64,000 nucleotides of DNA from Escherichia coli (GTDB lineage Bacteria > Pseudomonadota > Gammaproteobacteria > Enterobacterales > Enterobacteriaceae), in the NCBI RefSeq assembly GCF_016026235.1, contig NZ_CP065613.1, one strand, 5' to 3'. Position numbers and translations under genes: made by a program. The notes below the pieces were generated by a model. It saw only the letters and a list, made by a program, of their open reading frames with translations. It made no database searches and was not told the origin of the DNA. Shown piece after piece: positions 28,427-50,621 of this stretch (its first letter is position 1; every line of letters begins with the position of its first letter).

Positions 28427-28750
28427 CTACAGGCGGTGGCGATAATCGCTGGGAGTGCGATCAAACTGCCGACGGAAAACGCGGGAGAAGGTCTGCTGAG
28501 AGACATAACCCAGGTCCATTGCGATATCAAAAATCGGACGCTCGGTGGTGCGCAACTCAACGGCGGCCAGTAACAGACGGCGTTGACGAATGTAATCGCC
28601 AAGCGTCTGATGCGTCACCGTGCGGAACATCCGTTGCAGGTACCACTTTGAATAGCCTGATTTTTTTGCGACGACATCAATGTTAAGCGGCTGGTCAATA
28701 TGCTCGTCAATCCATGCGATAAGATCCTGAATAATTTTCTGATGGGACAT
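28427..28750 (-). CDS. soxS: Superoxide-response transcriptional activator SoxS (107 aa)
   Basis: Protein MSHQKIIQDLIAWIDEHIDQPLNIDVVAKKSGYSKWYLQRMFR... (AraC family). Confidence 0.97.
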   Translation of the reverse strand: MSHQKIIQDLIAWIDEHIDQPLNIDVVAKKSGYSKWYLQRMFRTVTHQTLGDYIRQRRLLLAAVELRTTERPIFDIAMDLGYVSQQTFSRVFRRQFDRTPSDYRHRL

Positions 28751-28806
28751 AAATCTGCCTCTTTTCAGTGTTCAGTTCGTTAATTCATCTGTTGGGGAGT
28801 ATAATT

Positions 28807-28824
28807 CCTCAAGTTAACTTGAGG
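28807..28824. promoter_or_regulatory. SoxR operator in the soxS promoter
   Basis: Perfect palindrome cctcaagttaacttgagg between divergent soxS and soxR, where the SoxR site is known to lie. Confidence 0.85.
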
Positions 28825-28835
28825 TAAAGCGATTT

Positions 28836-29300
28836 ATGGAAAAGAAATTACCCCGCATTAAAGCGCTGCTAACCCCCAGCGAAGTGGCGAAACGCAGCGG
28901 TGTGGCGGTATCGGCGCTGCATTTCTATGAAAGCAAAGGGTTGATTACCAGTGTCCGTAATAGCGGCAATCAGCGCCGATATAAACGTGATGTGTTGCGA
29001 TATGTCGCAATTATCAAAATTGCTCAGCGTATTGGCATTCCGCTGGCGACCATTGGTGAAGCGTTTGGCGTGTTGCCCGAAGGGCATACGTTAAGTGCGA
29101 AAGAGTGGAAACAGCTTTCGTCCCAATGGCGAGAAGAGTTGGATCGGCGCATTCATACCTTAGTGGCGCTGCGTGACGAATTGGATGGATGTATTGGTTG
29201 TGGCTGCCTTTCGCGCAGTGATTGCCCGTTGCGTAACCCGGGCGACCGCTTAGGAGAAGAAGGTACCGGCGCACGCTTGCTGGAAGATGAACAAAACTAA
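28836..29300 (+). CDS. soxR: Redox-sensing [2Fe-2S] regulator SoxR (154 aa)
   Basis: Protein [37 protein letters not shown]... (MerR family) with C-terminal [12 protein letters not shown] cluster motif. Confidence 0.97.
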
Positions 29301-29435
29301 AGCGCCACAAGGGCGCTTTAGTTTGTTTTCCGGTCTTTGTCTTTCTCTCTATCCCGCTGGTACACAGGAGGGTTTCCCCCGACGTCAACACACCTCATTC
29401 GAGCACGTGGTGGAGGTTCCGGTTGGTGTTGATGC
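29295..29435 (-). ncRNA. ryjA: Candidate small RNA (RyjA-like) convergent with soxR
   Basis: I recall a ~140-nt sRNA between soxR and ghxP on the opposite strand in K-12; the hairpin at the soxR stop (aaagcgccacaagggcgcttt) is followed by a U-rich tract on both strands. Ends not determined. Confidence 0.3.
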
Positions 29436-48473: not shown

Positions 48474-50621
48474 TTACGCCAGTGCCGCTTCGCGCAGGCG
48501 AGTTTTCAACTTGTTGTACTCGTCAATCACGTACTGCTCGGCGGCACGCTGATCGGCGATCGGCTCGACGCGCACGGCGCAGTATTTGTATTCCGGCGTT
48601 TTCGTAATCGGGCTTAAGTTTTCGGTAACCAGCTCGTTACAGGCACCAATCCACCACTGGTAGGTCATGTAAATCGCCCCTTTGTTCGGACGATCGCTGA
48701 CCTGCGCACGGGTGATAATTTTGCCTTTACGCGAGTGCACCCAAACCAATGCCTCATCTTCAATACCCAGACGTTTGGCGTCTTCGGTATTGATTTGTGC
48801 GTAGCCAGGTTCATCAGCCAGCGCCGCCAGTGCCGCACAGTTACCGGTCATCGAACGGCAAGAGTAGTGACCAACTTCACGCACCGTTGACAGTACCATC
48901 GGGTACTCGTCGGTGAGTTTGTCGATTGGCGCTACCCAGTCGCAGGTGAAGAACTGCGCCAGACCGTTCGGGGTATCAAACTTCTCTTTAAACAGATAAG
49001 AAGTCCCCTGATCGGCATCTGAAGTATCGCGGCAAGGCCACTGAATGAAGCCCAGTTCGCCCATTTTCTCGTAAGTCGCACCGTAGAAATCCGGGCACAG
49101 ATGACGCAACTCATCCCAGATCTCCTGGGTGTTGTTGTAGTGCATCGGATAACCCATACGGGTGGCGATTTCACTGATGATTTGCCAGTCCGTTTTCAGA
49201 TCCCATTTCGGTTCAACTGCTTTGAAGAAACGCTGGAAGCCACGGTCAGCCGCAGTAAACACGCCTTCATGCTCGCCCCACGACGTTGACGGTAAAATAA
49301 CATCCGCCGCCGACGCGGTTTTGGTCATAAAGATGTCCTGAACGATGACCAGTTCCAGATCTTCAAAGGCTTTACGTACTGCCGACAGCTCCGCGTCAGT
49401 TTGCAGCGGATCTTCGCCCATAATGTACGCGGCACGCACTTCGCCATGCGCTGCGCGGTGCGGCAGCTCGCTGATGCGATAGCCGGTATGCGCTGGCAGG
49501 CTTTCCACGCCCCAGGCTTTGGCGAATTTCTCGCGGTTAGCCGGATCTTTCACATACTGGTATCCCGGATACGTATCCGGCAGCGCGCCCATATCGCAGG
49601 CACCCTGCACGTTGTTCTGACCACGAACCGGGTTTACACCCGCATGCGGCTTACCGAGGTTACCAGTCAGCATCGCGAGGCTGGTCAGAGAACGCACGGT
49701 TTCCACGCCCTGGTAGAACTGGGTTACACCCATGCCCCACAGGATGGCGGCGCTTTTCGCCTGGGCATACATCCGTGCCGCCTGACGAATCTCACTGGCG
49801 CTGACGCCGGTGATATCTTCAACCGACTCCGGCGTGTAGCCTTCAACGATTTTACGATACTCTTCAAAGCCTTCTGTACGGGAAGCGACGAACGCTTTGT
49901 CGTACAGATTTTCTTCAATAATGACATGGCCCATCGCATTCAACAGCGCGATGTTCGAGCCGTTTTTCAGTGCAATGTGCATGTCAGCAATGCGCGCGGT
50001 TTCAATTTTGCGCGGATCGCAGACGATAATTTTCGCCCCGTTACGTTTAGCGTTAATTACGTGATTCGCCACGATTGGGTGGGAATCCGCCGGGTTGTAC
50101 CCGAAAACGAACACTAAATCGGTATTATCAATTTCGTTAATAGCATTGCTCATTGCGCCATTACCGACCGATTGGTGCAGACCTGCAACCGATGGGCCGT
50201 GTCAGACACGAGCGCAGCAGTCAACGTTATTGGTACCAATAACGGCGCGCGCAAATTTTTGCATTACATAGTTGGTTTCGTTACCCGTACCACGCGAGGA
50301 GCCGGTCGTCTGGATGGCATCCGGACCGTACTTCTCTTTGATGGCGCTCAGGCGCTCGGCAACGTAATTCAGTGCCTCATCCCAGGAAACAGGTTCGAGT
50401 TTGCCGCCACGCTGGCGACGGATCATGGGGGTTTTCAGGCGCGGGGTCAGGATCTGGGTATCGTTAATGAAATCCCAGCCATAATAACCCTTCAGACACA
50501 GGGTACCCTGGTTGGTTTTCCCCTGCGCTGCCTCCGCCCGGACGATTTTGCCGTTATCGACGACCAGGTTGATTTTGCAACCTGATGCGCAATAGGGGCA
50601 AACCGTGACGACTTTTTTCAT
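48474..50621 (-). CDS. fdhF: Formate dehydrogenase H, selenocysteine-containing (715 aa; in-frame UGA at 50202-50204)
   Basis: Track ORFs 50202..50621 (139 aa, ...NNVDCCARV) and 48474..50153 (559 aa) are in the same frame, separated by one TGA and 16 sense codons; 139+1+16+559 = 715; molybdopterin-oxidoreductase Cys cluster MKKVVTVCPYCASGCKI at the N-terminus. Confidence 0.95.
50155..50201 (-). promoter_or_regulatory. SECIS element of fdhF
   Basis: mRNA immediately 3' of the UGA reads CACGGCCCAUCGGUUGCAGGUCUGCACCAAUCGGUCGGUAAUGGC, which forms the fdhF SelB-binding hairpin. Confidence 0.9.

Follow-up and report, generated by a model that had tools for sequence, protein, structure and literature searches.

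The 18-bp palindrome between soxS and soxR of an Escherichia coli genome corresponds to the known SoxR operator of a bidirectional promoter

The stretch of DNA analyzed here, hereafter the window, comprises 64,000 nt of an E. coli genome and includes the divergent genes soxS and soxR. Both genes were assigned with equivalog models, SoxS with NF007584 (228 bits for a cut-off of 174) and SoxR with TIGR01950 (245 bits for a cut-off of 116.9). The encoded SoxR is the same as the crystallised E. coli SoxR of PDB entries 2ZHG and 2ZHH at 152 of 154 residues. The differences from the K-12/2ZHG protein, G15S and I40V, are conservative and both lie in the N-terminal DNA-binding region, with the operator unchanged. 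In addition, the four cysteines of the [2Fe-2S] cluster (C119, C122, C124 and C130) are all kept in a CX2CXCX5C motif, and soxR directly adjoins the box described below. The gene neighbourhood, uvrA, ssb, yjcB, pdeC, soxS, soxR, ghxP, yjcE, actP, acs and nrf, is that of the standard E. coli map. At the other end of soxR, we observed the small RNA sraL/RyjA (Rfam RF01408, 153 bits; 29293-29433, minus strand), antisense to the 3' end of the gene. The overlap takes in the soxR stop codon (29298-29300), and a 13-bp terminator hairpin at 29294-29324 is common to both; ryjA is annotated at the same place in K-12. The soxS-soxR intergenic gap is 85 bp long (28751-28835) and contains a palindrome of 18 bp. 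The features of the locus are as follows:

28427 to 28750, minus strand: soxS coding sequence, 107 aa, AraC-family activator (NCBIfam NF007584 equivalog; RefSeq annotation of matching E. coli genomes)
28836 to 29300, plus strand: soxR coding sequence, 154 aa, MerR-family [2Fe-2S] redox sensor (TIGR01950 equivalog; PDB match)
28807 to 28824, no strand: SoxR operator (SoxR box), CCTCAAGTTAACTTGAGG (sequence, match to the published box, K-12 identity, recurrence across species)
28823 to 28828, minus strand: soxS promoter -35, TTTACC (custom scan; it shares its final two bases with the start of the palindrome)
28804 to 28822, minus strand: soxS promoter spacer, 19 nt, 2 nt above the optimum (the palindrome covers 16 of the 19 positions)
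28798 to 28803, minus strand: soxS promoter -10, TATACT (custom scan and cross-species flanks)
28800 to 28805, plus strand: soxR promoter -10, TATAAT, consensus (custom scan; 57 of 58 soxS-containing loci)
28777 to 28782, plus strand: candidate soxR promoter -35, TCGTTA (custom scan; matching at 3 of 6 positions, with TATAAT following after 17 nt)
28821 to 28824, plus strand: probable soxR Shine-Dalgarno, GAGG (read from the sequence; end of the right arm of the palindrome, 11 nt before the ATG)

Reading the sequence confirmed a perfect palindrome at 28807-28824, as a preliminary description of this DNA had claimed: the two arms of 9 nt are 100% complementary, with zero spacer between them. 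That description had also placed it centrally between the soxS and soxR starts. The palindrome does lie between them, but it is not centred: the ATG of soxR is 11 nt away and that of soxS 56 nt. Taken alone within the window, it is weakly above chance and unconvincing. We counted four perfect palindromes with arms of at least 9 nt in the 64 kb vs. 0.4 expected from first-order Markov simulations, in which 33% of the simulated windows held at least one; these are the numbers on which a reading of the palindrome as a functionless chance occurrence would draw. Its significance comes from its position and its conservation and not from palindromy itself.

We analyzed the promoter elements of the intergenic region with a custom scan that allowed spacers of 15 to 21 nt on both strands. 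On the soxS strand, the palindrome is bracketed by TTTACC (28828-28823) and TATACT (28803-28798) exactly 19 nt apart, the arrangement that had been proposed as a check of the operator assignment. The -35 does more than flank the palindrome, however, as the two share 2 bp, the CC at the end of TTTACC. A standard promoter scan with spacers of 16 to 18 nt detected no promoter at 28807-28824, a result that is uninformative because the 19-nt spacer falls outside its range. The soxS -10 is essentially invariant across the 58 Enterobacterales loci with soxS among the matches listed, and transcription of soxS would start at about 28791-28792 on the minus strand. As in MerR-type promoters, a dyad operator lies between the -35 and the -10, and the spacer is over-long (19 nt, within 19-20 bp).

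The palindrome is equal to the published E. coli SoxR box at 18 of 18 positions: CCTCAAGTTAACTTGAGG is described as a dyad bound by a SoxR dimer between the soxS -35 and -10, which are separated by a 19-bp spacer (PMC4411124). Moreover, the soxS-soxR intergenic region with 10 nt on either side is 100% identical to that of K-12 MG1655, the strain of the published SoxR/soxS promoter experiments. The hexamers, the SoxS and SoxR models, the K-12 identity and the published box all agree with the earlier suggestion that the SoxR operator and the long-spacer soxS promoter are located here. The K-12 soxS/soxR promoter with its SoxR box was reportedly characterized by Hidalgo and Demple in 1994 and 1997 and by Hidalgo, Leautaud and Demple in 1998, and the SoxR structure 2ZHG is said to be the work of Watanabe and colleagues in 2008.

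On the opposite strand, the consensus soxR -10 (TATAAT) and the soxS -10 (TATACT) overlap by 4 bp, so that the two divergent genes have overlapping -10 hexamers, as in a bidirectional promoter with a shared -10. From the position of TATAAT at 28800-28805, the soxR transcription start is placed inside the palindrome, probably at 28811-28813, about 7 nt past the hexamer. We infer the exact start nucleotides of both genes from the sequence, together with a weak soxR -35 assignment (TCGTTA) and a probable soxR Shine-Dalgarno (GAGG at 28821-28824). The predicted soxS and soxR starts are about 20 bp apart, inside the range of 10-23 bp given for such promoters (PMC12825309).

To evaluate how often the element recurs, the exact 18-mer was searched in one genome per species (298 Gb). 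We observed a match in at least 120 species, vs. about 4 expected by chance (298e9 / 4^18, for a palindromic pattern). Among the matches listed, the species belong to the Enterobacterales, Vibrio, Shewanella, Pseudomonas, Xanthomonadales-like bacteria and Alphaproteobacteria, as well as to the Acidobacteriaceae, the Opitutaceae and the actinomycetes (Streptomyces, Nonomuraea). In 94 of the 120 loci listed, the palindrome is directly adjoined by a soxR homologue (37-99% identity, tblastn) that points away from it. On the opposite side of the palindrome, soxS is present in 58 of these 94 loci, all of Enterobacterales type.

The 94 loci were oriented by the adjacent soxR only, and the flanking sequence played no part in their selection. 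The -35 hexamer ending in the first CC of the palindrome was TTTACC in 72 of them, TTGACC in 21 and TTGCCC in one, so that TT(G/T)ACC was found in 93/94. A TAnnnT motif followed after exactly 19 nt in 88/94 loci and after 21 nt in 3, while none of the 94 had it at 15-18 or 20 nt, and their mirror strand exhibited no comparable -35/-10 pattern. The 19-nt TAnnnT was also observed in 30 of the 36 more distant soxR-adjacent loci without soxS. When no soxR was adjacent, TT(G/T)ACC-19-TAnnnT was found in one orientation in 23 of 26 loci. In the enteric group, the AAT between the palindrome and the soxS -10 was invariant and TATAAT was present on the soxR strand in 57 of 58 loci, which is expected from a -10 in shared use. 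In addition, the distance from the palindrome to the soxR start codon was constant at 11-12 nt in the Enterobacterales loci among the matches listed.

These comparisons argue against a chance origin of the palindrome: the 18-mer is found in at least 120 species vs. about 4 expected, mostly beside soxR, and the -35/19-nt/-10 geometry accompanies it in up to 117 of the 120 listed loci (19-nt TAnnnT: 88/94 and 23/26). The invariance of the surrounding core in 99.6% of the E. coli genomes, presented below, points in the same direction. The chance reading was rejected on this cross-species conservation, and we consider its probability negligible.

Three of the 120 listed occurrences (L049, L074 and L117; two MAGs, one of Flavobacteriaceae and one of Berkelbacteria, and a third genome), which make up the rest of the 26 loci without an adjacent soxR, carry the 18-mer without a SoxR-type promoter and with A-run/T-run flanks. 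They look like terminator-like hairpins or chance matches, in about the number that chance predicts.

These flanks resemble those of bidirectional terminators. We considered that the palindrome might act as an RNA hairpin (a terminator, an attenuator or a mask of the soxR ribosome binding site) and not as a DNA operator. Transcribed in full, the palindrome would form a stem of 7 bp closed by a loop of 4 nt, with a folding energy of -9.1 to -9.5 kcal/mol and z between -2.5 and -3.7, and the right arm includes the probable Shine-Dalgarno of soxR. However, the window has no U-run after the stem, whichever strand is read. The palindrome is located upstream of the soxS start, in the promoter spacer, and would be absent from the soxS mRNA. 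On the soxR side, the predicted start at about 28812 falls in the left arm, and the RNA from there is unstructured (-2.1 kcal/mol, z = 0.01). Finally, the promoter hexamers are conserved at a fixed spacing that an RNA hairpin does not need. The hairpin or terminator reading was rejected on the folding, the missing U-run, the position in the promoter spacer and the unstructured RNA from the predicted soxR start, and it appears extremely unlikely.

A related proposal is that the operator doubles as a translational limit on SoxR, with soxR transcripts started further upstream folding a hairpin that hides their own ribosome binding site. If this were true, soxR read-through from a promoter in or beyond soxS would form the hairpin of about -9 kcal/mol and sequester GAGG. 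RNA from the predicted soxR start forms no hairpin masking the ribosome binding site, which leaves this proposal without direct support, and we regard it as very unlikely.

Within the species, 5425 of the 5426 complete E. coli genomes contain a match to the 951-nt soxS-soxR region, which carries the annotation pdeC-soxS-soxR in them. Identity to the window over the 951 nt is typically about 98.3%, and because just 343 of the 5425 genomes reach 99% or more, the window belongs to a minority E. coli lineage. The 46-nt core at 28790-28835 is unchanged in 5390 of 5412 matching E. coli genomes (99.6%), a proportion that overstates the number of independent observations, as these genomes share ancestry and are phylogenetically non-independent. 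The surrounding divergence of about 1.7% predicts a change within 46 nt in about half of the genomes, which suggests a stronger constraint on the core than on its flanks.

One E. coli genome differs at this position. In strain E138 (NZ_AP022351.1; L122), an IS1X4 element (IS1) sits immediately next to the SoxR box, at the position that corresponds to 28801/28802. It splits both the soxS -10 (TATACT) and the soxR -10 (TATAAT) and leaves palindrome and soxR intact. Strain E138 may be unable to induce soxS.

Published experiments bear directly on the protein that binds the palindrome. In K-12, PsoxS/soxR is described as bidirectional, with one -10 region used in both directions (PMC12825309, NAR 2026). 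In an EMSA on the K-12 soxS/soxR promoter region, mutating the entire SoxR site eliminated SoxR binding, whereas mutation of a half-site predicted by Seo et al. between the shared -10 and the soxR -35 left binding unaffected (PMC12825309). In vitro transcription showed activation of soxS and direct repression of soxR by SoxR, the latter most likely through masking of the divergent start (PMC12825309). Activation is attributed to oxidised SoxR only, and the single site covers the soxR start, leading to autorepression (PMC4411124). It could be argued that the palindrome is recognized by another protein, for instance some other regulator that forms dimers or a restriction/modification enzyme with the central GTTAAC as its target, and that the link with SoxR is incidental. 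Any perfect dyad could bind a dimer, and GTTAAC is a type II (HpaI-type) restriction site sequence. Nevertheless, the 18-mer stands beside soxR in 94/120 listed loci across distant phyla, all 18 bp are conserved and not the central 6 alone, and the EMSA ties the complete site to SoxR; there is hardly any probability left for this explanation.

Overall, the palindrome is almost certainly the operator of a single SoxR homodimer in the bidirectional soxS/soxR promoter, with activation by DNA distortion of the MerR type, and no result of the analysis contradicts the SoxR-operator explanation. The identity of the genes, the sequence and geometry of the promoter, its identity with K-12 and the conservation of box and geometry were established here. 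The literature on the identical sequence is the source for the binding of SoxR, its redox switch, the distortion of the DNA and the autorepression. According to the proposed mechanism, the soxS -35 and -10, 19 bp apart, would be 2 bp too far from each other, and wrongly phased on the helix, for sigma-70 RNA polymerase. With this over-long spacer, basal soxS transcription would be low and nearly silent while SoxR is reduced. One SoxR dimer would occupy the palindrome in the reduced and oxidised states alike. Redox-cycling drugs, superoxide stress or NO would oxidise its [2Fe-2S] clusters; the oxidised dimer would kink and untwist the DNA at the dyad centre (GTTAAC), and this distortion would realign the two soxS hexamers for sigma-70 RNA polymerase and switch soxS on. 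In either redox state, SoxR would occlude the soxR promoter, and autorepression would follow because the soxR start lies inside the operator.

A review of the MerR family describes the sharp kink at the dyad centre that realigns the -35 and -10 across the 19-bp spacer, with 2ZHG as the SoxR-DNA example (PMC9909328). Shortening of the spacer reportedly leads to lost or inverted activation (PMC9909328, 2ZHG, and Hidalgo & Demple 1997 as cited there).

Among the known systems, the closest is the K-12 soxS/soxR bidirectional promoter (PMC12825309), which is the same element: the 18-mer, the 19-bp spacer, the shared -10 and the divergent pair are all found, and the intergenic region is 100% identical. 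The regulatory DNA is without difference and the SoxR protein of the window differs by G15S and I40V. The merR/merT region of Tn501/Tn21 is similarly organized, with a dyad operator in a 19-bp -35/-10 spacer, a regulator (MerR) bound in both states that activates by DNA distortion, and an overlapping divergent regulator promoter repressed from the same site. By contrast, the operator sequence differs, MerR responds to Hg(II) and SoxR to [2Fe-2S] oxidation, and MerR drives effector genes directly while SoxR drives a second regulator, SoxS.

Non-enteric SoxR boxes (S. maltophilia mfsA-soxR and the Pseudomonas and Streptomyces regulons) present the same or nearly the same box between a TTGACC -35 and a -10 located 19 bp away, often with a divergent soxR and a shared -10. 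The non-enteric -35 is more often TTGACC, in contrast to the enteric TTTACC, and these boxes control efflux pumps and small redox enzymes directly, without soxS. In our data, genomes that lack soxS encode, downstream of the box and among others, efflux-pump membrane-fusion components, an ABC exporter and an NADPH-dependent FMN reductase, as well as glyoxalase/VOC-fold, SnoaL-like and DoxX proteins. Small SoxR regulons under direct control have been described in non-enteric bacteria (PMC4146615), and the efflux and redox genes observed here fit that description. In four loci, from actinomycetes and others (L036, L061, L092 and L113), an identical SoxR box is located 7-18 nt upstream of an ORF of about 630 aa, in a near-leaderless layout with no soxR nearby. 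The ORF of L036 is a fused ABC exporter according to Pfam, and those of L061, L092 and L113 are similar in length. A downstream motif, CATGAGCATGGAAGTGA, is common to L036, L061 and L092.

The element is already known: it is the same, without any difference, as the SoxR operator and soxS promoter of K-12 found in textbooks, and it brings no new biology. The operator is the point where oxidation of the SoxR iron-sulfur cluster becomes soxS transcription in E. coli. SoxS in turn switches on a superoxide and antibiotic-tolerance regulon that includes sodA, zwf, acrAB and micF. Redox and 'electrogenetic' biosensors in wide use are built around the same element (PMC9067924, PMC6612552), and the overlapping regulatory elements of PsoxR/S have been described along with their use in redox biosensors (PMC9067924). 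The value of the present analysis is that of a positive control, in which a real regulatory site was found and interpreted correctly from raw sequence, and the comparative data give a clean quantitative picture of a rigid 19-bp register across phyla.

Other palindromes and repeats were observed in the window. A perfect palindrome of 20 bp, CGTTATTGGTACCAATAACG, longer than the SoxR box, is located at 50225-50244. The selenocysteine insertion element of fdhF (SECIS_2, RF01988; 50155-50209, minus strand) is 16 nt away, which apparently puts this palindrome inside the fdhF coding region. At 5241-5264, a perfect palindrome of 24 bp, AAAGCCGGATGATCATCCGGCTTT, lies between convergent ORFs (4359-5231, plus strand; 5386-7869, minus strand); its A-run/T-run flanks give it the look of an intrinsic terminator that works in both directions. 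A perfect AT-only palindrome of 18 bp, ATTATTAAATTTAATAAT, was found at 19870-19887. Finally, naRNA4/CssrE (RF02564), which corresponds to REP/BIME-type repeat elements, gave five matches on the plus strand, at 36672-36742 and within 47277-47686, where four of them are arranged in tandem at intervals of about 113 nt.
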